Positions 6,977 through 59,662 of a DNA stretch of 64,000 bases are shown here, in pieces. The position numbers and the translations under genes were made by a program. This stretch comes from a phage: the NCBI GenBank assembly GCA_025823825.1, contig GCA_025823825.1_4720.1; one strand, written 5' to 3'. Position 1 is the first letter of the stretch; every line of letters starts with the position of its first letter. Under the pieces are notes generated by a model. That model was not told where the DNA came from. It ran no database searches and worked only from the letters and a program-made list of their open reading frames with translations.

Positions 6977-7604
6977 TGATACCTTCTATTAGTTGTACAG
7001 CAACTTCTTTTTCGGTGCTATAAAAGAACTTGCGGTGGAACTGAACAAGAAGCTTTTCGAATTTACATTGAACGATCTTTTTGCGTTCGATATGACCCAG
7101 GGAGAGCAAAGCACCCATGCAACGTACCGCTTGTTCGAGAACTTGTTTCGCGGTATCGTGATCGTCCGGTAACGGTAAATCTTCCTCATCGTCTTTAGCG
7201 ATAAGGCGTCTGATGATGTTATCGATACGTATCTCATCACCGTTAATAAAAGCCCCCTTCTCCCAGTCATCGAATCGTTGATGGATTCGACGTTGTAAGT
7301 TGGCTCTGTCTTCCATTAACTCTTTCAACTGGCTTTCTAAGTGGGATACGGTACGGCGGTCGGTTTCAGTGAAGTTTTCCGATTCTTTGTACCACCAATC
7401 ATTACGCGATAGTAAATCGTTAACGCGCGAAATCGTCCGACGACACTCACTAACAAGCCCATCACCATTCGGTAGCTCCGTGCCGAAATAGCATTTGTAT
7501 TTATAACGCATAACACGGATTAAACGTTTCGCTAGAAAACCTTGCCTTTCCAGTTTCTTCTTCAGTTGTGTGTATTTCTCTTCTTTTGTTTCCATTAATT
7601 CCAT
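6963..7604 (-). CDS. hypothetical protein
   Basis: 213 aa ORF. Confidence 0.45.
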   Translation of the reverse strand: MELMETKEEKYTQLKKKLERQGFLAKRLIRVMRYKYKCYFGTELPNGDGLVSECRRTISRVNDLLSRNDWWYKESENFTETDRRTVSHLESQLKELMEDRANLQRRIHQRFDDWEKGAFINGDEIRIDNIIRRLIAKDDEEDLPLPDDHDTAKQVLEQAVRCMGALLSLGHIERKKIVQCKFEKLLVQFHRKFFYSTEKEVAVQLIEGINEVK

Positions 7605-7993
7605 GATGTTGTACCTCGTTCAGCAATCAGGAGAGTCGTGGTTGTGCTTTTCACTAATCTATTAAAGTCTTGATATATCCGCCTGAGGGATGGTTTCAAA
7701 TCACAATAACGGCTGAAATAAACCTTCAAGTCATCTTTTGTCACAGTCTCCGTATTTATTTTCGTAGAAACACCGAGATCGATAAACTCTTTTCTTAATT
7801 GGGATAATTCATCAAGAAGTCGATGGTGGCTTAGATAAATAACAGATTTATCGGATAACAACTCGCCGGTTATCCGGCTCTGGCGTTCATCGAAATATTG
7901 GAGCCGCCATTCAATTCGCTTACGTAATTTATCAAGTAAATCAACAAAAGCGGTATAGCTGTTAACGGCTAGGTTAACTTGACTCGTTATCAT
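7595..7993 (-). CDS. hypothetical protein
   Basis: 132 aa ORF. Confidence 0.4.
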   Translation of the reverse strand: MITSQVNLAVNSYTAFVDLLDKLRKRIEWRLQYFDERQSRITGELLSDKSVIYLSHHRLLDELSQLRKEFIDLGVSTKINTETVTKDDLKVYFSRYCDLKPSLRRIYQDFNRLVKSTTTTLLIAERGTTSWN

Positions 7994-10558: not shown

Positions 10559-11440
10559 TCAGTAACAGTTATAATGGGTTCCAAGCCGCTCCGGTTTTCT
10601 CAGAAGACTATCTTTAAGCGGTACGACGTCGATATCAACGTTTTCTGAATAATAACCATTAGAACTACCATACCAACGAATAACAACACATCCTTTTGCT
10701 GTACGAATATGGTAAAATGTCCATCGCGTACGTTTGCAAAAGTCGTCATCCTCGTCTCTTTCCTCGGTTCTTTCTTCAGCGCTAAGTATCTTCTCACCAA
10801 TAATGTCGTTAAGATCGCCATCGATGTCTTCAAGGTACACTTTTTCACAGCAATCTTGCTTATGGCAGAATTCAACAACGTTCCCATCGCCCCGATAGAA
10901 AAGAAGGGCAATGCTGTATTGTAGCTGTTCGGCCGTTAAGTCTGTCGCGCAATACAAACTTTGATCTTCGGTTATCACCAAGACATTGTTGATTACGTGT
11001 CCGGCAAGCGCTCCGATCTTATTTACCGTGATAATCGGACGAACGGGTTCAGGTTGAACGATCGGAATACGAACACAACCAATTAAGGCCATCCGTCCTT
11101 TCTTTGGTCTAACCGCAAGGTAAGGTGATTTTCTTGGGTGGTTATGCAGACGTATTTCTAATTCGTCAAATTTAATCCCGTATATACCTAAGAAACGATC
11201 GAACAACCGATGAAACTCATCTGTTGCTTCTTTCAACGTTATGGTGTCTACCGTGAGTTTATGTCCCCTGAACACCCGGGTTATATCGATAACGTCGAGT
11301 GTTTTAAAATGTATTTCCGTAAGGGGGTGATTTGTATTTTCCAGGTATGTAATGGTTCTTTGAACCGCGATTTTAGGTGACGCACCTTTAAAACGTTTCA
11401 GGTATTTAACACGATAGCGTGTATGATCTGATGTTAACAT
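10559..11440 (-). CDS. hypothetical protein
   Basis: ORF-track N-terminus reads through the upstream hairpin; start set at ATG 11440 (MLTSDHTRY) preceded by GGAGAGGAG. Confidence 0.5.
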   Translation of the reverse strand: MLTSDHTRYRVKYLKRFKGASPKIAVQRTITYLENTNHPLTEIHFKTLDVIDITRVFRGHKLTVDTITLKEATDEFHRLFDRFLGIYGIKFDELEIRLHNHPRKSPYLAVRPKKGRMALIGCVRIPIVQPEPVRPIITVNKIGALAGHVINNVLVITEDQSLYCATDLTAEQLQYSIALLFYRGDGNVVEFCHKQDCCEKVYLEDIDGDLNDIIGEKILSAEERTEERDEDDDFCKRTRWTFYHIRTAKGCVVIRWYGSSNGYYSENVDIDVVPLKDSLLRKPERLGTHYNCY

Positions 11441-11507
11441 TTTAATCTCCTCTCCCGACTTCAGAGAATTCTTAAAATCCGTTAGTTTTGATAGATGAGG
11501 TAAGACG

Positions 11508-11534
11508 GCATAAAAGCCTCCCGTAATGGGAGGC
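11508..11534 (-). terminator. hairpin GCCTCCC-GTAA-GGGAGGC followed on minus strand by TTTTATGCCG
   Basis: Inverted repeat seen directly; sits just downstream of the 11548 stop. Confidence 0.55.
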
Positions 11535-11547
11535 TTCATTAATCAGC

Positions 11548-21262: not shown

Positions 21263-21303
21263 CGCACGTACCTCTTTGAATCTATTAATAAATTTTCTTT
21301 ACT

Positions 21304-21327
21304 CACGTAAGTAATATAGCCGTGAAA
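21304..21327 (-). promoter_or_regulatory. conserved promoter-like motif, copy 1 (minus strand TTTCACGGCTATATTACTTACGTG)
   Basis: One of 4 near-identical copies, all 50-70 nt upstream of minus-strand gene starts; core TATATTAC. Confidence 0.5.
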
Positions 21328-21399
21328 GGATTTGTGTTGGCCCGTTTCGATGCCCATCGTATTTTATGGATTGTCGAATGACGTCATTTTAAGGGACAT

Positions 21400-26477: not shown

Positions 26478-28052
26478 TTACAATTCAAAATCTTCATCGA
26501 TAACACGCTGGGTAAGCACTTTGTCGCTGAAGAACTCCACCTTGCGCTGATGGTATTTACGGTGCGCTTCGATAGAAGTACATACCAGATACCAGAACGT
26601 TGGCGTCATTCCTTCAAACTTTCCTTTCAGCTGACGCAGTCGTCCCAACACCTGAATGTTACCGGTTCGTGACCCCATCGCTAATGTCATGAACGTCATC
26701 ACCAAGTCAGGAAGGTCGATACCTGTACCTGCCGATTTCACCGTTGTAACGCTAATATCGTTATCCAGCAAGACCATGAAGTCTTCTTCAGCAGTATAAG
26801 GACCGATTTCTAACTCAGGGATACGTTCACTGAGATAATGCGACAACGACTTACACATATCGACGGTTGCACAATACACCAGCATCTTCATACCTTCCTG
26901 ATACTGGTTCATGAAACCCTTGATAATAACGGTATAGATGAAGTTAAAATACGCGAGTTTGAGTTGCTTGTTCTTCATGATAGACTGTTCGAATATCGTG
27001 TGCGAATAAGCTCCACCAAACCCTTTGTATCTGACTTTATCTGTACTGCGTAGTCGGTACGTTACCGCATTTACCGCAATGTATTTCTTGTATTCGCCTT
27101 TCGCATAACGGGCTTCTTTCGGATACATCAAATACAGCATCTGTTCGATAAACGGATCATCGGATACCGCTGTTGCCGACAGATAAATGATTTCCGGAAT
27201 ATTGGCGTAACACTTGACCTTAAACAAGAAATGCAATGCTTCGTGACACTCGTCATGAATCAGCAAACCTATGCCGGTCTTTTCCCAAAACTCAGCGGGA
27301 TGAAAGGCATATGGCGCAACGCAGTTATTCTTCTCGTAGTCCGCAATATAACGTTGGAACATGTTCAAGGAGAACAATGCGATTTTGAAGTCGAGTTCAC
27401 CTTGTTCAACCAAGGTTTGAAACTCCAACATACTGTAACGAGGAATGTCGGGATGCGGTGGATCCTCCTTAGCGTTCCCGCGTATCTCGATAACGTCCCC
27501 TGGTTCCATCCCGAAGAAGTTCAGCAGTGAGCTTCGCCAACCTGGCATGTATCTCGGCGACAGAATGATACCCGTCCGTACACCGCGTCGGAAGGTGATC
27601 TCCTGCGACATGGCCGTTTTTCCTGACCCCGTTTGAGCGGTGTTTAGGCTCATTCTGAAGGGGGTATCCTTACCCCCGTCCATGTACTCCAACCATTCTT
27701 GCTGATCTTGACGCCATGGAAACTTCCATTTCTTTACGAACTCCACTTCTTTACCTGGTACCGGATCGTGATAGACGATTTCCAACCACTCTTTTCGTAT
27801 CCCTCGGGAAAAGATAAAATCCAAAAACGATTTCAACTGTTCACGGAGTAAGTATACCTCGCTATAATCGCTTCTTGCCGCGGCATACGTGTTTATGGTA
27901 TCGGTAACCATTCTCCGTGTACGAGGGTCACGCCGTTTCCTCAGATGCAAACAACGGTCTCGAAGGTAATGGCCGATAAGATGGGCAAATCGAAGTCCGT
28001 ATCCGCTCAGCCTCATGCCGTGCGAGAAGACGTCGATACGAGCTAACTTCAT
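26478..28052 (-). CDS. superfamily 2 DExH-box helicase
   Basis: 524 aa; AQTGSGKT, HDECHEA, SAT, QVLGRLRQ motifs. Confidence 0.75.
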   Translation of the reverse strand: MKLARIDVFSHGMRLSGYGLRFAHLIGHYLRDRCLHLRKRRDPRTRRMVTDTINTYAAARSDYSEVYLLREQLKSFLDFIFSRGIRKEWLEIVYHDPVPGKEVEFVKKWKFPWRQDQQEWLEYMDGGKDTPFRMSLNTAQTGSGKTAMSQEITFRRGVRTGIILSPRYMPGWRSSLLNFFGMEPGDVIEIRGNAKEDPPHPDIPRYSMLEFQTLVEQGELDFKIALFSLNMFQRYIADYEKNNCVAPYAFHPAEFWEKTGIGLLIHDECHEALHFLFKVKCYANIPEIIYLSATAVSDDPFIEQMLYLMYPKEARYAKGEYKKYIAVNAVTYRLRSTDKVRYKGFGGAYSHTIFEQSIMKNKQLKLAYFNFIYTVIIKGFMNQYQEGMKMLVYCATVDMCKSLSHYLSERIPELEIGPYTAEEDFMVLLDNDISVTTVKSAGTGIDLPDLVMTFMTLAMGSRTGNIQVLGRLRQLKGKFEGMTPTFWYLVCTSIEAHRKYHQRKVEFFSDKVLTQRVIDEDFEL

Positions 28053-30055
28053 AACGTGATTACATCCTCCGGTTTAGGTTCTTTACGCGGTAACAGCATG
28101 TAGTCGATCGGATGATCCGGCTTCATGGTTGGGATATAACTGTTCGGGTTTTGGAACGCATCCAGCTGCTCTTGGTGAGCGAACTTCATACTCAAGGAGC
28201 GCATGTTCATGTTCTTCTTGAAGGTACTGAAGTATCGTGTTGTTCCCTGTTTCGGCATGCGATAATCTTTCGTGTGCGGTGAACGAATCATGCTGGCGTA
28301 GAGAATAACATCGAGATGCGAAAGGTTCATTCGCAGACGCTGGGCACACAGACGATGCCAATAGTACAGCACGTTTGCAACTTCTTCCGGTGTTGCTTCG
28401 TCTTCCGAAAGGAATCCGGCACTGAAAGAACCTTTCCCGAATTTGAATTCACGTTCGATTTCTTTTGCGTATTCCATCATGTTTTTGTGGATTAACGGCA
28501 TCTGGAATAACGTACGTGAATTGTCCCAATGTTTCAAGTCGAAAATCACAATCCCGTCAGACGTCACTTCCCAGCTATGGCGTTTAAGATAACGGATAAA
28601 CGCTTTACTCGGTACAACAGGACGTCCACAGAAATCGAAATTGACTTTGAGCTTACGATAGCTTTCATCTTTCCTGTCGTAAATCTCCATATCGCAAAGC
28701 GTCATGTTAAACAAGCGTTGCGGTATCAGCGAACTGATTTCTTCCGCTTCGGCTACGTCGTACAACATGTTCGCAAGACCTAACTTCATCTTAATCAGCA
28801 CGTGTTTACCTTTCAGCTCACGTGCGAGTTTGATGTCGTTCATGTTCTGGCTATAGCGAAGGATATGTTGATATTCCGGTGGGATTGGTGCTGTGGATAC
28901 CGTTGACGAACCATCGTGGTGTTTGGTAGAAAGAATGTTCTGCGTCACCTGTTGCGAACAGGTACGCGCTGCGCCATCGCCGACATTATCAGTCAATGCG
29001 AAGTTATGACTTAATTCACCGTAACACGTTGTACATACCCCAGCAGGATCGGGATGATGACAATAGTTAACGGAGCGCATGCGTACCGTCGTGCCGATCA
29101 ATTCTTTCATGTGTGGTTGTATCGCTACCAACGAACCGTCATCACGAATAATGAATCGACCATGGAAGCCACGCAGGTCGGTCTCGTCGCGGATTGGCAT
29201 CGGGATGGTCTCTTTACTACCACAATCACCAGGATGGAGTCGTTGTACAACCGCTGTCGCTATCTGAAGTTCACGACCGAAATATTCAGACTTTTTAATC
29301 TGCTCTTTGTTGAACAGCAACGATTTTGCCGCAGAACGACTTTCTTTCAAGCTGTCGGGAAGAGAGATCAAACCGGCTGCGTATGACCGCATTACTGGAT
29401 CACGGAATATCTCGGAGTTAATATCGGTCAAGAATCCACGCATCCCAATACACTGCAGCACCTGTCCAATCGAAACGTGTTCGGTTCTTACCGCACGTGC
29501 GATAGGGTTTGCATGTAACGTTTTATCGGTGCTCAGTACCTTTGTCAGTTTCTTGTATGCGCTTTCGATACCTTCACGGGTGGGTTCCGCTTCGGCGATG
29601 ATTTTCTTAACTTCGGGATGTACGGTAATCTGATAAAAATCGTCCGCGCAAATCGTTGTTACGTATTCCTCCAACGCATACGTAAAGAAGTTATATACGT
29701 TGTTGAACATATCGAACAGTGCTTTCCAGAGAACCTCACGATTCTCTTGTGGGTAAGCATACATGCATTGACGATACGCTGCGCTTTGCAACGCAACCGA
29801 CGAACCAGCAGTAAACTTGCGTTTATCGACCAGGTTCTCTTTTGTCAATGGTGTCTCAGGATACATGCGATGCACAGACCAGTGCATGTAACTAAAGAAA
29901 ATGCGTCGCGCACGCAATTCATGAACGCCATCGTCCATCTCGATATATACACGGTCATTAGGCTGTGCCCACTCGAACACCTCATCAACCGGCCAATGCA
30001 TAAGCTCGCGTGCCCTCACACGACGTTTCGTGGTGGTCGTCTGTGTTATAGTCAT
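28049..30055 (-). CDS. RNA polymerase beta'-like subunit, C-terminal portion
   Basis: 668 aa; VLQCIGMRGFL...YAAGL...GDCGS resembles bacterial beta' region F/G (QLAGMRGLM...FREGL...DDCGT); compared from memory. Confidence 0.6.
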   Translation of the reverse strand: MTITQTTTTKRRVRARELMHWPVDEVFEWAQPNDRVYIEMDDGVHELRARRIFFSYMHWSVHRMYPETPLTKENLVDKRKFTAGSSVALQSAAYRQCMYAYPQENREVLWKALFDMFNNVYNFFTYALEEYVTTICADDFYQITVHPEVKKIIAEAEPTREGIESAYKKLTKVLSTDKTLHANPIARAVRTEHVSIGQVLQCIGMRGFLTDINSEIFRDPVMRSYAAGLISLPDSLKESRSAAKSLLFNKEQIKKSEYFGRELQIATAVVQRLHPGDCGSKETIPMPIRDETDLRGFHGRFIIRDDGSLVAIQPHMKELIGTTVRMRSVNYCHHPDPAGVCTTCYGELSHNFALTDNVGDGAARTCSQQVTQNILSTKHHDGSSTVSTAPIPPEYQHILRYSQNMNDIKLARELKGKHVLIKMKLGLANMLYDVAEAEEISSLIPQRLFNMTLCDMEIYDRKDESYRKLKVNFDFCGRPVVPSKAFIRYLKRHSWEVTSDGIVIFDLKHWDNSRTLFQMPLIHKNMMEYAKEIEREFKFGKGSFSAGFLSEDEATPEEVANVLYYWHRLCAQRLRMNLSHLDVILYASMIRSPHTKDYRMPKQGTTRYFSTFKKNMNMRSLSMKFAHQEQLDAFQNPNSYIPTMKPDHPIDYMLLPRKEPKPEDVITL

Positions 30056-32118: not shown

Positions 32119-34287
32119 TTAGCTTTCGCAGTCATCTGCGTCGATGATTTGTCCGCCAGCAACGTTCAGTTGATGATACAGAATCCTCAACGCACGGTTG
32201 CCGCCAATGGGATATTTCTCGAAGTTGGTTGCAATAGGAATCGCTGACGGTTTATCGGTCGCATAGATGCTTTCGGTGATGCTATCCACCTGTTTTGGAT
32301 TGTTCGCATAATCCATAAAGACGCTTGCGAACCATCCGCCAGCAAAGGCGGTAACCTCACGATGTTCAGATTCGCCACAGTAACGAGTCGGTTGCTCTTT
32401 ACCCGGAGAACTGTATTTATCGCTATTACTGAGTTTCGACGGTAATCCGTGCGCTTGCAATTTAGGGATACCCACCGCTGACCAATCGTTCGCCGTCTTC
32501 TCCAACATCATGATGTACGTGTCACCGATCGCAATATCGTTCTTGGTTGTCCGCCATTGCCCGGAACGCCCACGGTATCGTACAGGACCTTTCTTCAACG
32601 GGAACTCACGAATCAGATTCTCCATACGTTCTGAACCTGCTGCGATACTGTCCGTCGGGATATAAACTTCCGTACCGTGGCGTTGTACGTACCGTAAATG
32701 ATCCCATTTATCCTCATCCGTGATACAGTATTTTTCAACAACCTGTTCCACGAACTCAGGACTGACGATATAGTAGTAGCGCATCAGTGTGTTCCAAGCG
32801 GTCTCCAGATCGCCTGCATCCATCACCGGTTTCAGTTCACGCATGATCTGATCACCAACGCCGTTGATGTAAGGTGCGTTAACACGACTTAAACTCATCC
32901 TTTTGATTACCGTACTATCGTCGAACATGAAGTCCGCAACGTTACCCCATTGGTCGACCGGCATTTCATCGTCTTCCATGATGTCGGTTACGACGAATTT
33001 ATCACCCGCCATACCGGTGAATTTAAACCCGATACCTGGAACAACGTCGTACGTGTACGTGATGGTCACACGCCAATCATCGAGATTCTCTTTACGGTAA
33101 TCGCGGGTTGGTAATACATGACGTAGCTGTCCGTTGGGATTGCGGATATCAATACCATGTTCAGCATCAGCCAGGTTCAACCACCACATCACCGTTTGAT
33201 GATGACGTATCGGCGTACCAACGCGTTCACGTTCGTACTTACGAACAGCATCCTGAATTCGGGTGTAAAGCAAACCAATCGCGTTCTCGTATTTCAGGAA
33301 TTGACGATACGGAGGACGCATCTTCTCTTCCATCATAATCGCACGCTCGCGGGCTTGACGTCCAGAACGACGATGTCGGTCGCTGACAACATCGATATCC
33401 GTTACACGCGCATTCGGTTCCGCGTAAGTGAGATCATCGTAAACATAATCCACACGCTGAAGGTTACACGTCATCATGTCAACAACGCTGAGGATAGGAT
33501 CGATTTCGCGTGTTGCTGCAAGTAACCCATCCTTACGAATACGCTCACCATTCTCGGGTATTGCTTGGTATACCTCGTCATCGCCGTAGAGATTGATTGG
33601 GTATCGTGATTTACCTGATGTGATCGTCCGCTTCTCAATGCCGGTACTGGTGAAATGCTTCAATACACCACGACGGGCAACACCACCATCCTCGATACAC
33701 TGATAGAAGCTACCGAAACACACCTTGCAATCGCGACCGTAACCCCACTCGCGTGTTTCTTGATTGATCGCTGGGCTTTCCATCAAACGAGAATATCGCG
33801 GTACGATCTGGCCTCGACGGAGGGAATGGAACAAGTTGGTTGGTCGAAAACGGAAACCGTACTGCTGATGCATGATGTGATGCTCAGGCACTTCAAGCAA
33901 GCGTAGTTCGTGGCGGTTACCATCCTCTTGGTTTTCGTACAGCACGTAATGCATCGTGTTTGTTTTGATGCTGTTTGCTGTATGCCCCGGTTGGAAACGT
34001 GGGATGATATCTATGATGCGAGATTCAACTGGAAACTCTACTGACCAAGTGTTCTGTCCGTACTGGTATTCGATCCCCGTCGTCAGTCGGGACGGTTTCG
34101 CATCTTTGATAACCAACGCTTGGCTAAGATGTCCGCCAAACATCGCAGCGCGCTGTGCTGAGTTATAATGCAATAGCCCGTTAAGTCCAGTCCCTACGCC
34201 AGTATACTCCTGTTTAATGGGAATGATTTTACCTTCAGCGATTGCCTGCTTCACAGATTCATAAAGAGGTTTTTCTTTATAATGCAT
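32119..34287 (-). CDS. RNA polymerase beta-like subunit, C-terminal portion
   Basis: AGDKFVV..EDDEMPVDQWGNVADFMF..RMSLSRV and GESEHREVTAFAGGW resemble bacterial beta GDKMAGRHGNKG...EDMPYDENG and GEMEVWALEAYGA; start at ATG 34287 with AGGAAG upstream. Confidence 0.65.
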   Translation of the reverse strand: MHYKEKPLYESVKQAIAEGKIIPIKQEYTGVGTGLNGLLHYNSAQRAAMFGGHLSQALVIKDAKPSRLTTGIEYQYGQNTWSVEFPVESRIIDIIPRFQPGHTANSIKTNTMHYVLYENQEDGNRHELRLLEVPEHHIMHQQYGFRFRPTNLFHSLRRGQIVPRYSRLMESPAINQETREWGYGRDCKVCFGSFYQCIEDGGVARRGVLKHFTSTGIEKRTITSGKSRYPINLYGDDEVYQAIPENGERIRKDGLLAATREIDPILSVVDMMTCNLQRVDYVYDDLTYAEPNARVTDIDVVSDRHRRSGRQARERAIMMEEKMRPPYRQFLKYENAIGLLYTRIQDAVRKYERERVGTPIRHHQTVMWWLNLADAEHGIDIRNPNGQLRHVLPTRDYRKENLDDWRVTITYTYDVVPGIGFKFTGMAGDKFVVTDIMEDDEMPVDQWGNVADFMFDDSTVIKRMSLSRVNAPYINGVGDQIMRELKPVMDAGDLETAWNTLMRYYYIVSPEFVEQVVEKYCITDEDKWDHLRYVQRHGTEVYIPTDSIAAGSERMENLIREFPLKKGPVRYRGRSGQWRTTKNDIAIGDTYIMMLEKTANDWSAVGIPKLQAHGLPSKLSNSDKYSSPGKEQPTRYCGESEHREVTAFAGGWFASVFMDYANNPKQVDSITESIYATDKPSAIPIATNFEKYPIGGNRALRILYHQLNVAGGQIIDADDCES

Positions 34288-34318
34288 AGGACTTCCTATT
34301 ATCGAATTGAGGTACGTC

Positions 34319-34672
34319 ATGTCTAACACGCCCCTGAACGACTTTCTTAAGACAAACCCCGATGACCTCATCCACGATCTTGATTTCAGGAACGTTGTTG
34401 AGATGCATCTGGAATATTTCAAAAATGCCGGACTGGTCTCTACGATAGACATACCACCCGAACGTGCCTACGAATTCGATGGTAACTTTTATGGATTGTG
34501 TCGTGTTCTGCTCGGCGAGGGTAGCGAACCAATGCACTGGATAACCATGAGACTCAATGGTTATCGTGACCCTACGGAATACACCGCCGATGTTCTAACC
34601 ATGAAGATTGTCGATACAAGCGCAATCAACACATTAAAACAACAGTACCGCACAATCCACTACAGCGCTTAA
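34319..34672 (+). CDS. hypothetical protein (isolated plus-strand gene)
   Basis: 117 aa from ATG 34319 with GAGG upstream; divergent from beta gene. Confidence 0.5.
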   Translation: MSNTPLNDFLKTNPDDLIHDLDFRNVVEMHLEYFKNAGLVSTIDIPPERAYEFDGNFYGLCRVLLGEGSEPMHWITMRLNGYRDPTEYTADVLTMKIVDTSAINTLKQQYRTIHYSA

Positions 34673-39248: not shown

Positions 39249-39300
39249 AACAACCTCTTTTCGCGGTTCCCTGTTAAAACGTCTTCTGTGACGTCTACCA

Positions 39301-39324
39301 CAAAGGTAATATAAGCGTGAATAA
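39301..39324 (-). promoter_or_regulatory. conserved promoter-like motif, copy 2 (minus strand TTATTCACGCTTATATTACCTTTG)
   Basis: TATATTAC core about 55 nt upstream of ATG 39248. Confidence 0.45.
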
Positions 39325-39452
39325 TTTTGGATTCCGGCTGAGTTATCGCTCAGCATGCAAGGCATCCCGCCGAAGCGAGACACCTTGCACTAACGGAAAA
39401 TATTCGCGTTACCTTCTGAATCGAAGACTCAGAATGCGATGCTAAAGCATTA

Positions 39453-44512: not shown

Positions 44513-44577
44513 TAGGATTTAATTTCCAATATAAGGGCAATGTGATATGCCTTATACAGTCGATTGATGTTGTACAT

Positions 44578-44601
44578 CACCTAAGTAATATAGCCGTGAA
44601 A
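44578..44601 (-). promoter_or_regulatory. conserved promoter-like motif, copy 3 (minus strand TTTCACGGCTATATTACTTAGGTG)
   Basis: About 65 nt upstream of ATG 44512. Confidence 0.5.
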
Positions 44602-44610
44602 AATGTTGGA

Positions 44611-45490: not shown

Positions 45491-46129
45491 TTAACCTAAT
45501 TTACCACCGGCGATGTTGGTGAAGTCTTCGCCGTCAGGAACTTGCAGTAGGATACGTGCCATGTCCCAGTTAGTTAATGTGATTGCTTTATCATCGATAC
45601 TCAGTTCTGGTAGGTCGAGTTCATGATCATCAAACTCGTAGGAAATACTCCACGTTTCGTCTGTTTTAGGATCGGTTATCAACACACCGTCTGTTACACG
45701 CATGTAGTCCGGATGCAGTTCATTACTGAATGTGCTGAACGGATCGGTGTAACATTCAGCATACCCCTCGATCTGCTGACGCTGTGCCTTCGTACGTAAA
45801 TCAGGGCACGCCATGATCAGTTGTCGAGATATGCCGTTTGCAGCTCGGAAATCCTCCACGGTGTTACATGGCATAACCACATCGTCGTGGAAGATGTTCT
45901 CCGATTGTCTCAACAGCGTCTTACGGAGTTCAGCATAGTTTATCTGATTGAATGCATCAAACGTTGCTAACGATTCAGCGTAAAAATGCTTTACGTGTTC
46001 GCTTGCGCCGCCGAGACTATTCATCAACTTGTGCCCGTACTCCATGAAACTTTTATCGAGACCGGAGGACATTTCTCCGAACCTCAGTGCACGATAACTG
46101 TCTCGTCCACCTGTAAATATTTGCGCCAT
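45491..46129 (-). CDS. hypothetical protein
   Basis: 212 aa ORF. Confidence 0.5.
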   Translation of the reverse strand: MAQIFTGGRDSYRALRFGEMSSGLDKSFMEYGHKLMNSLGGASEHVKHFYAESLATFDAFNQINYAELRKTLLRQSENIFHDDVVMPCNTVEDFRAANGISRQLIMACPDLRTKAQRQQIEGYAECYTDPFSTFSNELHPDYMRVTDGVLITDPKTDETWSISYEFDDHELDLPELSIDDKAITLTNWDMARILLQVPDGEDFTNIAGGKLG

Positions 46130-46144
46130 TACAGGCGTCCTCCT

Positions 46145-46378
46145 TTAGCAATGGTTGTTAGTTGCTTCTATTTCGTCAAGATAAGGTTCTACGTCATCGC
46201 CCTCCACGAATTCGTTGAACCAGCAGTCAATGGTAGAAATAACCGGTGACTGGTGTTCACATTTCTTAGATACCTTAAAAGGTACGTTATTATCCATCAT
46301 ACCGAGTTCGGGTCGAAAACGCCCGAAATGTTTCGCAGTCCAAATGTCTGGGACGATATGGTTGTTCATCGTAGCGTT
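46145..46378 (-). CDS. RNA polymerase beta' N-terminal subunit, proposed exon 4
   Basis: NATMNNHIVPD...PELGMMDNNVPF aligns to bacterial beta' QMAVHVPL...ALMMSTNNILSP just after DFDGD. Confidence 0.55.
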   Translation of the reverse strand, partial: NATMNNHIVPDIWTAKHFGRFRPELGMMDNNVPFKVSKKCEHQSPVISTIDCWFNEFVEGDDVEPYLDEIEATNNHC

Positions 46379-46727
46379 CAGCATGAGTCGCTACCTCATG
46401 CCCGCAGCTTTACCTGCAGCTTCCGGTGTTACCGGAATGTCCAGAATACATCTTATCCATATTCCAAATGGAACGTAGGACTTCCGCGCTGGATCTCGCT
46501 TGAGACCACGTATTCGTTGAACGTTCTCCTGAACGGAGCTTCGCTGCTGATCGAACATTGTCATGTACGGTAGGCGTCCCCGAAGGGATTGTCATTGAAG
46601 CCGCGTACATCCGCTACCTTGTTTCTACCTTATCGGTTCCTCTTACGAGGCGTAGCGGCCTTAGCCCTTCCCAGCAATTCACGGAATCCAAGCTCTTCCT
46701 TTCGGAAGGCAGGGCCTATGATTAAGC
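46379..46727 (-). ncRNA. group I intron C (ORF-less), boundaries approximate
   Basis: Minus-strand P/Q/R/S-like elements AATTGCTGGGAAG, GATCAGCAGC, GTTCAACGAATA, AAGATGTATTCT; ends in G before exon 4. Confidence 0.5.
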
Positions 46728-46737
46728 ATCCCCGTCG
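46728..46737 (-). CDS. proposed 10-nt micro-exon 3 (C GAC GGG GAT, completes F and encodes DGD)
   Basis: Inferred from frame restoration, not observed. Confidence 0.4.
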
Positions 46738-47113
46738 CTGTTATCGACTATATCTTCATCCTCGTTGCGAGGAGTCTCCCGTTTTGGTCTGTGTTTAACA
46801 GAGCCTACTCTACTCGACATCGCGTCTTTCGATAGTCTGTGAGCACACATCTTAACGAACATTCGTGGATTCCTAAACAGGTGAACGTTCTTGTTGAGAT
46901 GCTTCGCTGCGGATTATTCCCGTCCTACCTCTTTTACCCTACCCAGTTCATTACGCTGGCCCTCATCTGTGTCACCACGATGAGTTGGTGTGTAGTCCGA
47001 TTACAGAAACTTCCCGTCAATTAGAGAGTTTTAACTACGTTCCTGTTACCAGAAACCAGATCCCGACGGTATCAATAAATCAACGTAAGTTATTGATTTA
47101 ATTGAAAAAACTG
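46738..47113 (-). ncRNA. group I intron B (ORF-less), boundaries approximate
   Basis: Minus-strand AATTGACGGGAAG (P), AATCCGCAGC (Q), GCTCACAGACTATCG (R), AAGATATAGTCG (S) in canonical order; GGTAGGGTAAAAG P5-like. Confidence 0.6.
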
Positions 47114-47126
47114 AAATCTGCATTAT
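47114..47126 (-). CDS. proposed 13-nt micro-exon 2 (AT AAT GCA GAT TT, completes Y and encodes NAD)
   Basis: Joining exon 1 ...AAA GGG T to this gives MILKG-YNADF; preceded by G, ends in U. Confidence 0.4.
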
Positions 47127-47492
47127 CTTAATCTTCAGTATGGTTCGCTACTCCATACCCGTACGTCATGTACTGCTTACGTCTTTCACGTAAGAAGAGA
47201 CTATATCTTTCACCCTCAGCATTATCTGGTCGGGGCTCCCATTTCGGCGGTCAGATGACCGGTGGTTTCCCACGCCGCTTGGCCCTAACGCCCGTAAGCG
47301 ATAGTCGTTGAGCGCATCTCCGTTCTGGAGACTTCGCTGCGGATTCCCCAATCCTTGCCGCTTTTACCATACCTGAATGATTAGTTCAGCCCCACGCTCT
47401 GTTCCCAGGCGTGGTTGGTGGACAAGGCTCTAAGTAGGTTCCCGCATTAGAGAGTTCTGCGTGACAACATTTCTGCGTTACTGGGCCTAACG
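47127..47492 (-). ncRNA. group I intron A (ORF-less), boundaries approximate
   Basis: Minus-strand TAATGCGGGAACC (P), AATCCGCAGC (Q), GCTCAACGACTATCG (R), AAGATATAGTC (S); GGTATGGTAAAAGCG P5-like; GCCC near 5' end can pair with exon GGGU. Confidence 0.6.
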
Positions 47493-48735
47493 ACCCTTTC
47501 AAGATCATCACGCTTAACCCGATGGTGTTATCCTGCGGATCGCGTTTAACCTTGGTGATTTCAAGACATTGGTTACTGCTTCGGTCAAGTGATGGGTTTC
47601 GAACAAAGCCACACACAATCCCATCGAACGGTGTATCAGCAATAAGCTCATCGTGCAGCTCGCTCATCATTGGATGATAATTACGGACATGTTCCGCAAC
47701 GAACGCACGTGCTGCTCTCGGTGAATAACCACGATGGAATAACTTGGATTGGATATGTTCTTTATTGGTTAAAGTAAATGGTGCGTATGGGAAATGCAGA
47801 TGATAATAACGATGGTTCGCTGTTATCGAACTGATTACGGTACGCGTGGTGAATGGATGTAATGTACCTAATATGTTTTTACGTGTGATACCTTTCTTCT
47901 TACCAATGAACTCATCGAAAATTGCTGCGTGGTATTGCAGTAGCTTCAATTGCACTTTCGCCATCCAGTTTTCTTTCTTTCTGGCGCTCAAAGGTGTTGT
48001 TGGGTGATAGATACTGTTCAACGTACCAATAGCATCGATCGCACCTTCCATTTTGCTATCTGCATAACGACCGGTTGGCGTATTCTCGATAACGAACATC
48101 ATGGCCGCAGGAAAGCTGATATACTGGCTGAAGAACTTATCACGATGGATACGGATGAATTCTCGTAGCGTGTCAACTTTCTCCGTGTTCTTCGGTCCAC
48201 GTAACGTAGGTCCTTTATACAAGATCTCCATTATGCGATCGAAGTTCTGTATAAAGCTATTTACGCCGCGACGTATCCCGAATACATCGAATTGCTGCTC
48301 CAGATAGTTCTTGAGTTCGATGGGTCGTTTTACATTTGGACGGTAACTGGCATCAATGAGCCACGTCATCGTTTCAAAGCTTTTGATATTCAACTCGCTT
48401 GCCAGCACGAGATGGACCAACGGGTTAATGAACGCATCAATTCCTTCAGGAACACGCGCCCAAACCGTCGAACGAATCTCCTGTTCTGCCGGGTAGGTCA
48501 CGACCGTTTTACAGTTTGGACACACCGTGCCGAGTAGCTCACCACGATTGTAGAAACCACAACCACATTGTGGTGTGATATCCAACGTATCGCTGGAGTA
48601 AACACGGGTGATAAAACTGTTTAATTTCTTCTTCTCTTCGACGACTTTTGTATCGTAATCATTCAACAAAATCGGCGTAAAAGGAAGTTCTGCGAGCTGT
48701 CTATCGAAACTCACGATATCGAGCATGATGGCCAT
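47493..48735 (-). CDS. RNA polymerase beta' N-terminal subunit, exon 1
   Basis: Zinc ribbon CGCG...CPNC, GRYADS, KNILGTLHPFTTRTVIS, RNPSLDRSSNQ in beta' order; ORF ends just before DFDGD would be expected; 35-aa ORF tail is intron read-through. Confidence 0.65.
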
Positions 48736-48777
48736 GGGGTATCTCCTACAAATGAAAAAGAACGTTAGGACGTATAA

Positions 48778-48802
48778 GGGAGGGAGGTTGCCCTCCCTCC
48801 CG
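48778..48802 (-). terminator. hairpin GGGAGGGAGG-TTG-CCTCCCTCCC downstream of the 631-aa gene
   Basis: Perfect 10-bp inverted repeat; arm order reversed versus the others; weak U-tract. Confidence 0.45.
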
Positions 48803-48827
48803 TCAGATTACATCGAACGTTCTTCCA

Positions 48828-50723
48828 TTAGAACAGGTTGAATGCCCCACCCATGTTGTTAACGCCAACATTCGGACGATCGCTACGTGCGTAGATGTTA
48901 CCGGAGATGTTACCCAGACCACGAGCACGTGCTGCCATGTTACCACGAACAGCGGTACCTGCCAGATGCTGGATGTTCTCAGGACGGATGGTGAAGCCAG
49001 CATCAGCAGCAGCTTCGATCAGCGCCTGCAGTGCTAACGGATCGAAGTCGTAACGCATTGCCCAGCCGGTTTGTTCCCAGCTACCAGACAGAACACGATC
49101 GATGATTTCGTGACGAGCGACAACACGCTGAGACATCGTCATATCGGTACGGTCGAAGCTGTCTTCCCAAGCTTCTACGGTATCCGGGTTAGTGATGTTC
49201 ATCATGTACAGATCGTCCATATCACGAATATCGTGACGGTGACCATCCTGGTGGTTGTAGTGACCCAGCGGGATACGGTTACCGGTAGCGTAGACCAGCG
49301 GTAAGCCGTATTGATATTTCTTGCTGAAGCAACCCAGGGTAACATCATCGAAGGCACGGTAGAGTGCTTTGTAACCTTCAGAGACTTCCCGAACATCAGC
49401 CTCAACATTACCCGTATAGATCTTCTCAGCCGCCGGGATCATACGCAGCAGCCAGCTGTATTCGCCTTCTTCCGGTACGTCGATAGAAATCAGCAGGGAC
49501 GGATACAGTACCTGTTGCAGGAACTTGTAAATCTGCTCATTGGTTTGAGTAGACAGATCCAGCGGTGCGGTAACTTCCGGATCCAGCACCATCGCCAGAG
49601 CACCCGGGTTATGCGGACCGATACCACGAGCAGCGTTGCTGATTAAAGACTGCGCCCATGCCATGCCGCTGTTCAGCGTAGCGATGGTGCCAATCAGACC
49701 CAACACGAAAGTGTTCGGTGTGAACGCATCCAGCTCCAGCGGGTAAGCGCTGGTCATCACGTAACGCGGCTGGTATTGTACAGTCGGCGGTACCGGATAA
49801 CCGTTAACCAGAACAGGGCCTTGGTTGAAGGTCGGGTTCTGCGGGCTGTAAGTCAGGTCAATGTAACCGGTGGTGGCGACCAGACGCTGTTGACTATCGT
49901 AATCGCTCATCGCTTGACGGATGCGGTTAGAGATAGTTACAGTGATGTCAGAACGCACAGGGTTACCAACAATATCGCTGTCCTGCATACCGCTGGTGTT
50001 GTACTGAACGCTGCTGATTGGCTGATCGCTTGCCATCATGCCCAGGTTGAACTGCGGCAGACCCAGTTTATCACCGAGACGGATTTCGATTGCGGTCTGG
50101 ATTGCGTTATCTGCAGCAGACAGCAGGGTGGTCGCCAGATGCGCAGATTCAGCGGTGATTTCATTGGTCACCACAGCCAGACCAGCGATACGAGCAGTAC
50201 CATTAGACTTACCGCCAATAGCTGCATACATTGCCGCCATGACTTCGTTGATGAACGTACCGTTCAGGTTATCAACCCAGGTACGCGGTACCAGAATGTT
50301 ACCATGCGGACCTTGTTCTTCACGACGCGGCAGCGGAGCCAAACCGGCAACCAGCGGAAGCACATAACCGAAGAAGTGGTTATGATCACCAACTTTTGCA
50401 CCACTCATAACGACCAGGGTCGGATACGGTACGCTGTACTGGTTCGGGTCAACCGCAACAAAGATGAAGTCGTCTTTGAACTGGGTATCTTCCAGATATT
50501 TCTCCATCAGACGACGGAGATTCAGTACCTGCTCGGAGCCGGTATTACGGCTGATACGACGGCTCAGTGTACGGTTGATCGTACGCATCGTATGAGTTAC
50601 TTTAGGACGGTCGGCAAAATCTGCAGCGGTTTCCAGCGCCTCATCAGCACGTTGTGCGGTGCGGGTTTCAGCTGCACGAATTTCTACATTATCGTTACCG
50701 TTATTACGTACGTCTAAGCCCAT
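48828..50723 (-). CDS. abundant early protein, candidate phage-nucleus shell protein (chimallin-like); alternative structural protein not excluded
   Basis: 631 aa, strong AGAGGA RBS, promoter motif copy 4 upstream, hairpin downstream; product is inference from context and length. Confidence 0.4.
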   Translation of the reverse strand: MGLDVRNNGNDNVEIRAAETRTAQRADEALETAADFADRPKVTHTMRTINRTLSRRISRNTGSEQVLNLRRLMEKYLEDTQFKDDFIFVAVDPNQYSVPYPTLVVMSGAKVGDHNHFFGYVLPLVAGLAPLPRREEQGPHGNILVPRTWVDNLNGTFINEVMAAMYAAIGGKSNGTARIAGLAVVTNEITAESAHLATTLLSAADNAIQTAIEIRLGDKLGLPQFNLGMMASDQPISSVQYNTSGMQDSDIVGNPVRSDITVTISNRIRQAMSDYDSQQRLVATTGYIDLTYSPQNPTFNQGPVLVNGYPVPPTVQYQPRYVMTSAYPLELDAFTPNTFVLGLIGTIATLNSGMAWAQSLISNAARGIGPHNPGALAMVLDPEVTAPLDLSTQTNEQIYKFLQQVLYPSLLISIDVPEEGEYSWLLRMIPAAEKIYTGNVEADVREVSEGYKALYRAFDDVTLGCFSKKYQYGLPLVYATGNRIPLGHYNHQDGHRHDIRDMDDLYMMNITNPDTVEAWEDSFDRTDMTMSQRVVARHEIIDRVLSGSWEQTGWAMRYDFDPLALQALIEAAADAGFTIRPENIQHLAGTAVRGNMAARARGLGNISGNIYARSDRPNVGVNNMGGAFNLF

Positions 50724-50788
50724 TTGGGATTCCTCTTTTCTTAAACTTTATTAAATGACGTCATTGAATCAGCTTCTACTCGCTCATT

Positions 50789-50812
50789 CACCTAGGTAAT
50801 ATAACCCTGAAA
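50789..50812 (-). promoter_or_regulatory. conserved promoter-like motif, copy 4 (minus strand TTTCAGGGTTATATTACCTAGGTG)
   Basis: About 70 nt upstream of ATG 50723. Confidence 0.5.
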
Positions 50813-50977
50813 TTTTTTTCAATATTGGTGTAACCACATTGAACGATATAAACCCCTAGGCGAACGCTGCCGAGAAGCAACATTCTTTCTACATATAATC
50901 AGGATATGTCTGTAAACTTTTACTTCTCTTATTGAGAGTAATGTCATATCCGTTTACTACCTTCTTACGGAGTTCGT

Positions 50978-52072
50978 ATGTTTCGTGTTTTAAATAACCT
51001 CCCGCGAACATCATCGGGTGTGCAACCCGTCCCTCAGAAAGACTATCTAATACGCGAAGTTCAAAGAAACCTACAGACAATCCAGAACCACTATCAAGGT
51101 TTTACCTTCGCGGTTCAGAGCGATCACATCCTTGCGTTGCTGCTCGCACAGCTCCCTATGAGATACGACATCTCAGTACAAACTTACTACGACATGATTC
51201 TCGATCTTACGCCAGAATTGGGTAATCGTGTTAAGTTGACAACATCAAGATACGCGGGTAAGTTATTCGACGGTGCTTTCTATCCGGGATTGCACGAAGC
51301 TATTATCGCAACCGGTGAAAGTCGTCTTATTTCACGTGACGTTCTTGACAACTGGCGTAATTGGTCGCCGGTTAGAATCGTGACGCACCCATACGCAAAT
51401 CTTCGTTACATTCCTCTTCACCAAAAGCAGGTTGAAGAAGGACGAGGTTTTGCGGTCATTATGGTTGATGTACCTTTATTAGCATTACAGTATCGAATGT
51501 GGTCTTTGGTCATGGGTCATAACGTCGACGGTAAATGGGTGGTTAAAGAACCGGTTACAAGCTTCCTTGCGAGTTTTCCGTTGGTTAACGCATTATACTC
51601 ACACAACGATGTTGTTATACGCAATCGTTGTTTGTGGGTATCTCCGGCTAAGAATCCACTCAAATCACCCATTTACGTTAACGACCTTGATAACGTATTC
51701 AGCCAAGTCGTTCTGTCCGTACAGCATCATTTATTACGAAGAAGACGAAGCTACACCGACATGCTTAAACAGATACCGAGTTTATACGGAGATCAGTACC
51801 AAGCAACCCGAATGGGTTACACCGTCGATCTTCGACAAACCCGATGGGCAAGGGATCTGGGCTGTCTGTCGTTATGGCAACAACTCGTCACACTACAAAA
51901 CGTATCTGAAAGCGTCGGGTTCAGCAGCCAAATCGATAACGACCTGTATCGTGCCGCCGACCGTAGTCTAAAAGAAGGTAACTGGGAGTCCTCTCCATTA
52001 CCTGGCGATTTAAGACGTGAAGTTATTGCACAGGTTGCCGACCTCTTAAAAATTCTTCCCGCCGGTGCATAA
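50978..52072 (+). CDS. hypothetical protein (plus-strand gene)
   Basis: 364 aa from ATG 50978 with GGAG upstream; TATAAT-like hexamer at 50893-50898. Confidence 0.6.
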   Translation: MFRVLNNLPRTSSGVQPVPQKDYLIREVQRNLQTIQNHYQGFTFAVQSDHILALLLAQLPMRYDISVQTYYDMILDLTPELGNRVKLTTSRYAGKLFDGAFYPGLHEAIIATGESRLISRDVLDNWRNWSPVRIVTHPYANLRYIPLHQKQVEEGRGFAVIMVDVPLLALQYRMWSLVMGHNVDGKWVVKEPVTSFLASFPLVNALYSHNDVVIRNRCLWVSPAKNPLKSPIYVNDLDNVFSQVVLSVQHHLLRRRRSYTDMLKQIPSLYGDQYQATRMGYTVDLRQTRWARDLGCLSLWQQLVTLQNVSESVGFSSQIDNDLYRAADRSLKEGNWESSPLPGDLRREVIAQVADLLKILPAGA

Positions 52073-58681: not shown

Positions 58682-59662
58682 TTAGAAAAGCAAGAAACCG
58701 CTGTTCTTCGCTTCTGCTACAGTTTCATCACCAACTTTCGGTGCTTGTTGACGTGCGTTACGATGTTCGATGTAACGTTTCGCTTCGTCAGCGATTTGTT
58801 TGATAATACCCCCTAAACGATCGGTACTTAAAACAAACGACGTCGCTTCACGAATCGGACTGCTTTCAGGCACAAAACCATCACAGCTGTAAATAGCGCT
58901 AACACCCATGACTTTTGTCGCGTCTTTCGGATAAAGCGTACAGAAAGCAATCGGGCTATCGTTCTCTTTCGTCCAATCGTATCCCATGAACGTATTCAGT
59001 TCGGTAATCGTTGGTTCCAAACCGGTAACACGTGGATGGTTTAAGAAGTTTTCCAGGTCGGCGCTGTCAAGACGGCGGTTCTCGCCAGAAAACAGAACAC
59101 AAAGCTGGCTAATAACAACCTGGACGTCCAGGTTGACATCCTGCTCCGATTTCCCATTTTCGCCATTCATGTGATAGCTAACAATCACCGGACGTTTCAA
59201 TCCTTCTGCAGCTGCCATCAGTCCTTTAAAGGTACGATCGGCGTTGATCGTTTGACGCTCATCATCGAACGAGGCAACGATGCAACATACCACACGTTCA
59301 CCACGTTCCAGCAGGTTAGCAACCAACGCAGGACCGGCAACAGAACCTGAACCACCGCTCAAACTAAAGACCACGATATTAAATTTACCTGGCGTATGCT
59401 TATTGAGAATACCTGGGATTTGCGAGCAGATCAGTTCAGCGTTCTCGTCGCGCTTCTTACCAGAACCGTCTAACTCACGACCGGCCGCATCTTTAAAGAT
59501 GTAAATATGATCGTCGTCCAGTGTGCTATCGCGTAGGTTAGCGCGGCTGGTATCAACATACGTCATGCTGTGTAATCCTTTCGCGACTTCGCCTTCAAAT
59601 GCTGAGCCGATTTCGCCACCACAACCACCGACAGCCCAAATATGTACTTGGTTCTCTTGCAT
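58682..59662 (-). CDS. phuZ: tubulin/FtsZ-like GTPase (PhuZ-like phage tubulin)
   Basis: 326 aa; VGGCGGEIG and SLSGGSGSVAGPA glycine-rich GTP-binding loops. Confidence 0.7.
   Translation of the reverse strand: MQENQVHIWAVGGCGGEIGSAFEGEVAKGLHSMTYVDTSRANLRDSTLDDDHIYIFKDAAGRELDGSGKKRDENAELICSQIPGILNKHTPGKFNIVVFSLSGGSGSVAGPALVANLLERGERVVCCIVASFDDERQTINADRTFKGLMAAAEGLKRPVIVSYHMNGENGKSEQDVNLDVQVVISQLCVLFSGENRRLDSADLENFLNHPRVTGLEPTITELNTFMGYDWTKENDSPIAFCTLYPKDATKVMGVSAIYSCDGFVPESSPIREATSFVLSTDRLGGIIKQIADEAKRYIEHRNARQQAPKVGDETVAEAKNSGFLLF

Follow-up and report, generated by a model that had tools for sequence, protein, structure and literature searches.

A chimallin gene of a Goslarvirus and its expression signals in a 64-kb phage sequence

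Analysis of a 64-kb stretch of phage DNA (hereafter the window, meaning the whole sequence at its full length) indicates that the gene under study is almost certainly chmA, encoding chimallin, the major phage-nucleus shell protein of a Goslarvirus. Goslarviruses are E. coli/Salmonella jumbo phages of the Chimalliviridae. The phage nucleus, built from chimallin, protects the DNA of jumbo phages against restriction enzymes and CRISPR nucleases. An initial annotation had described a 631-aa open reading frame (ORF), leaving its strand unstated, and had guessed at a chimallin-like shell protein. The ORF is real and runs on the minus strand from an ATG start to a TAA stop codon (Table 1), and the guess is supported by Pfam family PF25677, PHROG 4795, PDB entry 7SQT and identity to the Goslar protein at 624 of 631 residues. 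The finding as such is already known, ChmA being the well-studied nucleus-like shell protein of Goslar and the phiKZ group of jumbo phages; a well-characterised protein was correctly re-identified from raw sequence alone, adding no new biology.

Table 1. Features of the chmA locus and its surroundings, in window coordinates.
Feature	Position	Strand	Basis
chmA CDS (631-aa chimallin, major phage-nucleus shell protein)	48828..50723	-	ORF, Pfam, PHROG, PDB, identity to Goslar
Shine-Dalgarno AGAGGA	50731..50736	-	read from sequence; identical in Goslar
Early-type (virion RNAP) promoter motif, copy 4 of 4, TGAAAAAAATTTCAGGGTTATATTACCTAGGTGAATGA	50784..50821	-	PWM, consensus match, conservation in Goslar
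Motif copies 1-4	21299-21336, 39294-39331, 44573-44610, 50784-50821	-	shared extended context
Compound hairpin 3' of the chmA stop codon	48751..48829	-	fold energy, conservation in Goslar; role predicted
Split multisubunit-RNAP genes	28049-30055, 32119-34452, 47386-48735		PHROGs
PhuZ tubulin	58682-59662		PHROGs
Putative group I introns A, B and C in nvRNAP beta'	~47492-47127, 47113-46738, 46724-46382		

Identity of the protein and its relation to Goslar chimallin

The protein was searched against Pfam (E up to 1), PHROGs (E up to 0.01) and the sequences of the PDB (E up to 1). Its sole Pfam match is PF25677, Chimallin_Phikzvirus (89.4 bits against a cutoff of 27, E 2e-25), with an alignment that spans residues 19-595 and profile positions 10-591 of 627 and places the protein within the family. 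Similarly, the sole PHROGs match is phrog_4795, 'nuclear shell protein' (E 1e-51, residues 20-629). Among PDB sequences, the Goslar entry 7sqt_A, 'Chimallin', was matched over residues 1-631 at E = 0, and remoter phmmer matches were obtained to PhiPA3 PhuN (E 2e-20) and 201phi2-1 7SQQ (E 4.5e-10). The match to 7sqt_A and the 624 residues shared with Goslar ChmA establish homology to a solved, shell-forming chimallin. As judged from sequence, chimallin membership holds by each measure that could be tested, and the protein is a near-identical allelic form of the structurally solved Goslar ChmA.

Protein size and strong expression signals would also suit an HK97-fold major capsid or tail sheath protein, the signals then reflecting bulk synthesis late in infection. 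The initial annotation had argued against a capsid or sheath, proposing HMM and structure searches against both ChmA and capsid families as a check, and this view is upheld: homology to the HK97 fold or to sheath proteins was looked for in Pfam, PHROGs and PDB sequences and not found. Instead, Pfam and PHROGs return chimallin and nuclear shell protein alone, and the PDB matches are chimallin structures only. Moreover, the motif upstream of the gene is of early type, and the gene sits in a replication and transcription block, beside nvRNAP and a DNA polymerase gene that PHROGs confirms in the window. We regard a virion structural role as vanishingly improbable, and the homology searches already refute it.

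The chimallin assignment is further detailed by comparison with the Goslar nuclear shell protein (gp189 of Laughlin et al. 2022, HOV27_gp246, YP_009820873.1; PDB 7SQT/7SQU/7SQV). Both proteins comprise 631 residues and align without gaps, and they are told apart by seven substitutions, G38D, Q39R, R81Q, K439N, G442A, E443D and I447V. The coding sequences show 42 nucleotide differences, comprising 34 synonymous changes and seven codons with an amino-acid change; since the changes are mostly synonymous, purifying selection on chmA is indicated. Among 16 Goslar-type ChmA proteins, identity to the window protein amounts to 97-99%, with the variable columns falling mostly at residues 38-40 and 436-447. 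The chimallins of 201phi2-1 (PDB 7SQQ), PhiPA3 (PhuN, PDB 8FNE) and phiKZ belong to the same PF25677 family as the window ChmA. Goslar and 201phi2-1 chimallin, with a reported sequence identity of ~19%, share the same fold and lattice architecture (r.m.s.d. 1.8 Å), the CTS2 of the Goslar type being shorter and making other contacts than that of 201phi2-1 (PMC9365700).

How chimallin assembles has been described for Goslar and 201phi2-1 (PMC9365700). Monomers form tetramers, with an N-terminal segment docking on the neighbour, and tetramers are joined through two C-terminal segments on flexible linkers, generating a square lattice with units of ~11.5 nm, flexible enough to curve into a closed shell; for Goslar, the NTS, CTS1 and CTS2 contacts were resolved by cryo-EM (PMC9365700). 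Residues 40-80 and 448-631 of the window ChmA are identical to Goslar, and the three docking segments fall within these ranges when placed by homology to 201phi2-1 (NTS 48-61, CTS1 590-611, CTS2 622-631). As these segments are unchanged, the window protein would be expected to assemble by the same mechanism. In Goslar, the assembly of a protein shell around the phage DNA has been shown by cryo-ET, cryo-EM and knockdown. The shell holds the replicating phage DNA inside, keeps ribosomes and host nucleases out, and separates transcription from translation. ChmA knockdown lowers Goslar plaquing at least 10,000-fold, and without ChmA the infection stalls as a membrane-bound early-infection (EPI) vesicle with no DNA replication (PMC10541120).

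Promoter motif, ribosome-binding site and codon usage

The gene is preceded by the fourth, in window order, of four copies of a motif of ~38 nt with the consensus AAA..TTTCACGGyTATATTACyTAgGTGA, as the initial annotation had stated. The TATATTAC core of this copy, at 50796-50803, ends 72 nt before the chmA ATG. Exactly four copies are found in the 64 kb, all on the minus strand, and every one is intergenic and located about 50-95 nt upstream of a ribosome-binding site and start codon. In a PWM search over 128 kb of strand the four copies scored 46-51 bits, compared to 11 bits for the next-best site, a gap that arises partly by construction as the PWM was built from the same copies. The window holds four copies of the bare 8-mer TATATTAC, where 2.6 would be expected, and this enrichment is not significant alone; it is the long shared context, in combination with the confinement to a single strand and the intergenic placement, that argues for the copies being more than chance.

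Early-promoter consensus sequences have been published for OBP/N1M2, 201phi2-1 and phiKZ, namely TTTCARRYAKATATTATYWAAGTG, TTTRARR_BTATATTACDWHDGTG and TATATTAC, respectively (PMC7058600), and the motif matches them in register. Written as TTTCA-SG-Gy-TATATTAC-yTAgGTGA, the window motif agrees with phiKZ-like early promoters in its A/T-rich leader, the TTTCA block, the TATATTA core and the downstream GTG, but differs from them in being G/C-rich (CGG/GGG) between the TTTCA block and the core. In phiKZ, it is the injected virion RNAP that uses AT-rich early promoters of this kind (PMC10914365), and according to a review, the vRNAP transcribes 'particularly chmA and the nvRNAP' (PMC12908238). For Goslar, chmA transcripts and a transcription start site (TSS) were read from RNA-seq at 5 min after infection, and the chmA TSS display begins 91 nt upstream of the ATG (PMC10541120); this start corresponds to window position 50814, within motif copy 4. 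The early-type reading of the promoter, likewise put forward initially, is supported by the register match and by the Goslar 5-min RNA-seq. Indeed, early and very abundant chmA expression via the virion RNAP has been shown for both Goslar and 201phi2-1, and copy 4 is 100% conserved in Goslar. By analogy, the virion-packaged multisubunit RNAP would transcribe chmA on infection from a TATATTAC-type promoter ~75 nt upstream of the ATG. No host-type promoter would be expected at chmA, and a sigma-70 promoter scan around the gene returned two sites against 3.5 expected.

The claimed AGAGGA ribosome-binding site is indeed present, separated by a 7-nt spacer (ATCCCAA) from the ATG at 50723, the upstream sequence in gene orientation reading ...AAAGAGGAATCCCAAATG. 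Codon usage was assessed across 77 greedy non-overlapping ORFs of the window, using a list of E. coli optimal codons. Here chmA ranks first of the 77 both in optimal-codon fraction (Fop 0.79 compared to a mean of 0.51, z = +4.0) and in codon bias (Nc 34.6 compared to a mean of 51.4, z = -3.2), so that the proposed codon usage of a highly expressed gene is borne out. By analogy with the known systems, the strong ribosome-binding site and the host-optimised codons may direct very high early ChmA translation on host ribosomes. Aggregated, the promoter motif, the ribosome-binding site and the top-ranking codon bias make the window sequence consistent with early and abundant chmA expression. The intergenic flanks of the gene, 254 nt upstream and 92 nt downstream, are 100% identical to Goslar, and the promoter region, the ribosome-binding site and the downstream hairpin are shared in identical form.

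Downstream hairpin and genome setting

A strong hairpin downstream of chmA had also been pointed out, and it stands up to folding analysis: the 91-nt segment reaches -40.7 kcal/mol against a shuffle mean of -22.0 (z = -5.8), and 0/200 shuffles were as stable. Its core is a 10-bp all-G/C stem, GGGAGGGAGG-ttgc-CCTCCCTCCC, at 48778-48801, nested in a longer outer stem that is directly followed by CUUUUUCAUUU. A simple terminator scan around chmA did not flag the hairpin, as the T-run follows the outer stem and not the inner one. The hairpin is likely a transcription terminator or attenuator, or a stabiliser of the mRNA 3' end, and as such it would end or protect the chmA transcript ahead of the nvRNAP beta' N-part.

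Alternatively, with the ChmA assignment left intact, the hairpin may be a 5'-UTR or processing structure of nvRNAP beta', or a pure stability element, with the two genes being co-transcribed. The distance between the T-run and the inner stem and the lack of a call in the consensus terminator scan point this way. So does the published Goslar TSS display for nvRNAP beta'(1), which starts 91 nt upstream of the ATG, at about window position 48826, and would include the hairpin, and RefSeq places several putative terminators in the Goslar region, none of them at the hairpin site. On the other hand, the outer stem runs straight into CUUUUUCAUUU, the element is fully conserved in Goslar, and its position, 25 nt past a very highly expressed gene, fits an attenuator, since it lies between chmA and a gene that is needed in smaller amounts. 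Weighing these points, we consider the co-transcription reading rather unlikely and retain a terminating, attenuating or 3'-stabilising role as the preferred one.

The genes that had been named as context in the initial annotation, a PhuZ-like tubulin and split RNAP genes, are present according to PHROGs (Table 1). With chmA adjoining the nvRNAP beta' N-part, the window displays the gene context of the Chimalliviridae, and Erwinia phage Simmy50 and Pseudomonas phage PA7 share the order from chmA to nvRNAP beta'. Over its whole length, the window aligns collinearly with 123.6-186.2 kb of the Goslar genome at 92-98% nucleotide identity and with few indels. Megablast matched the chmA region to Escherichia phage vB_EcoM_Goslar (98.2% identity), where the RefSeq annotation reads 'nuclear shell protein'. 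Both genomes have the nvRNAP beta' N-part downstream of chmA and, upstream, a divergent 364-aa gene followed by the DNA polymerase, whereas the intron content of the adjoining nvRNAP gene differs between them. Sequence comparison identifies the window as a Goslarvirus genome, other than Goslar itself.

A public record with precisely the sequence of the window ChmA already exists, HCQ4163637.1, which is named 'hypothetical protein [Escherichia coli]' and encoded on a 238-kb contig. It is one of 249 proteins that cluster at 90% identity and come largely from E. coli and Salmonella assemblies, and the 15 members listed are either named 'hypothetical protein [Escherichia coli]' or unnamed. Goslarvirus has grown from 1 to 237 genomes via bacterial assemblies (PMC12768965). 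The occurrence of the 249-member ChmA cluster in bacterial assemblies fits this published expansion, and therefore also speaks for the window being a Goslarvirus genome. A megablast search of window positions 46000-51000 against RefSeq complete E. coli genomes gave no match, the protein being found in draft assemblies. It is safe to rename the cluster records as ChmA, encoded by Goslarvirus phages that were present in the respective cultures, and this re-annotation of many 'hypothetical protein' records constitutes the only practical value of the chmA finding.

Putative introns in the adjoining polymerase gene

As a side observation, the nvRNAP beta' gene downstream of chmA appears to be interrupted. 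The N-part ORF (47386..48735) covers positions 1-414 of the 478 in its PHROG profile, and a 79-aa ORF at 46145-46384, whose Goslar counterpart is annotated as 'gp185 hypothetical protein', aligns with that profile at positions 424-475 (E 2.7e-5). Since it matches the later part of that profile, the 79-aa ORF is a candidate 3' exon of nvRNAP beta'. Rfam gives three group I intron matches in this region, all under the 50-bit gathering score: 47177-47513 (32 bits, E 2e-5), 46738-47104 (46.9 bits, E 8e-10) and a weak partial match at 46482-46686 (16.7 bits, E 0.054 in a local scan). Two short ORFs in 46385-46740 were considered as exons; they gave no family match, and intron C accounts better for this region.

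The three putative introns cluster within ~26 coding nt of the catalytic Mg-binding motif, in the arrangement KG-Y|NADF|DGD(A)|.... In intron-less homologues NADFDGD directly follows exon 1, while in the window the codons for NADF sit between introns A and B, and those for DGD come immediately after intron B. In silico removal of all three yields a 501-aa product, ...ILKGYNADFDGDALNATMNNH..., which aligns with Simmy50; the splice sites of intron C are ambiguous by a few nt. Splicing would place ...ILKGYNADFDGD(A)... contiguous with MNNHIVPDIW in the nvRNAP beta' product.

Goslar-like genomes vary in the introns they carry at this site. Goslar is without intron A, which appears as a 366-368-nt insertion in the window. 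Intron B is common to both, but the Goslar copy carries a 1,065-nt insert with an HNH endonuclease gene that is absent from the window. From Goslar to the window, the exons carry two synonymous changes (GCC to GCA, GAC to GAT), and the putative internal guide sequence of intron B shows complementary ones, the exon/guide pairs being CCGACTT/GAGTCGG in Goslar and CAGATTT/GGATCTG in the window. Because the exon and guide changes are complementary, they support a functional P1 helix and a splice site within the Phe codon. A Goslar-like genome from IMG/VR has another intron, X, after Asn-Ala and a homologue of intron C after DGD, each scoring 26-28 bits over the full Rfam model. A contig search with the 79-aa exon-4 ORF recovered one contig, with the same intron configuration as the window. 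Across five Goslar-like genomes, four insertion sites and three intron configurations are seen in nvRNAP beta': B with HNH plus C in Goslar; A, B without HNH and C in the window and two other contigs; and X plus C in the IMG/VR genome.

Homing-endonuclease introns in RNAP genes of the Chimalliviridae are known from PhiPA3; a description of the nvRNAP beta' cluster was not found in the searchable literature. With somewhat more confidence than doubt, we propose that nvRNAP beta' is cut by three tandem group I introns and that its active-site codons form a polymorphic homing hot spot in a globally common lineage. This cluster is the sole part of the locus that is worth a further look. Were the proposal correct, the hot spot could serve competition between co-infecting phages, comparable to the PhiPA3 intron endonuclease, and the cluster, if confirmed, would offer a useful setting in nature in which to follow the homing of introns and the competition between phages of the Chimalliviridae.

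Apparent interruption in the gene for the nvRNAP beta' N-part

Next to chmA, the gene for the chimallin ChmA, the nvRNAP beta' N-part gene (46145-48735, minus strand) appears to be interrupted by three tandem group I introns, A, B and C, all of which seem to sit inside codons of the catalytic NADFDGD motif. The Rfam group I intron matches of A, B and C reach 32, 46.9 and 16.7 bits, and all three fall under the gathering score of 50 bits. Joining the four predicted exons yields a protein of 501 aa that can be aligned to intron-less homologues.

The ORF at 46145-46384 (minus strand) is in the RefSeq annotation of Goslar a gene of its own, HOV27_gp185, 'gp185 hypothetical protein'. It matches PHROG 2987 (RNAP beta') at positions 424-475, the C-terminal end of the profile (E 2.7e-5), and judging from sequence it is most likely the final exon of the nvRNAP beta' N-part rather than an independent gene.

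Features of the window and of related genomes
Feature	Position	Strand	Remark
Exon 1	48735-47493	-	nvRNAP beta' N-part
Intron A	about 47492-47127	-	putative
Exon 2	47126-47114	-	nvRNAP beta' N-part
Intron B	about 47113-46738	-	putative
Exon 3	46737-46725	-	nvRNAP beta' N-part
Intron C	about 46724-46382	-	putative; ends uncertain to within a few nucleotides
Exon 4	46381-46145	-	nvRNAP beta' N-part
Junction facing Goslar HNH gene	46739/46741		
HNH endonuclease gene	L001 5461-6471		L001, Goslar
Intron-bearing stretch	L008 9229-9965		L008, Goslar-like IMG/VR genome
ChmA residues 38-40	about 50604-50612		variable patch
ChmA residues 436-447	about 49383-49418		variable patch
Early-type promoter motif	21299-21336	-	
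Early-type promoter motif	39294-39331	-	
Early-type promoter motif	44573-44610	-	

Intron polymorphism and the putative intron B guide

Goslar-like genomes differ in the introns that they carry at the NADFDGD site. Goslar has intron C together with an intron B that holds an HNH endonuclease ORF, while the window and two further contigs, L009 and L006, have A, B lacking the HNH ORF, and C; the IMG/VR genome pairs intron C with a different intron, inserted after Asn-Ala. Across these five, the insertion sites total four, all within about eight codons.

Two synonymous differences, GCA/GCC and GAT/GAC, separate the exon of the window from that of Goslar (47059-47120 versus L001 6820-6895), and intron B shows complementary differences in its putative internal guide, which reads GGATCTG in the window and GAGTCGG in Goslar. 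Being compensatory, the exon and guide changes support a predicted active P1 helix in intron B, as well as a putative 5' splice site within the Phe codon of NADF.

ChmA records and other differences from Goslar

A deposited protein identical to the ChmA of the window (48828-50723) is named 'hypothetical protein [Escherichia coli]' (HCQ4163637.1). Its listed cluster members, which come from assemblies of E. coli and Salmonella enterica, also bear the name 'hypothetical protein' or none at all. These records are phage ChmA, originating from Goslarvirus genomes co-assembled with their host. When 16 ChmA sequences of the Goslar type are compared, each sharing 97-99% identity with that of the window, variable columns cluster at two patches (see table), with residues 439-447 holding four of the seven differences between window and Goslar.

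Besides the copy at chmA, the early-type promoter motif precedes homologues of Goslar gp159 (an HD-domain protein), gp175 and gp182, and these three copies are kept in Goslar with 0-1 mismatches per 38 nt. Segments 1864-2713, 7594-7989 and 10559-11450 have no counterpart at the matching Goslar positions; the first carries a 275-aa ORF (1871-2698) matching DNA methyltransferase PHROGs (E 2e-72), and the last overlaps a 326-aa ORF (10559-11539) of PHROG 2650.
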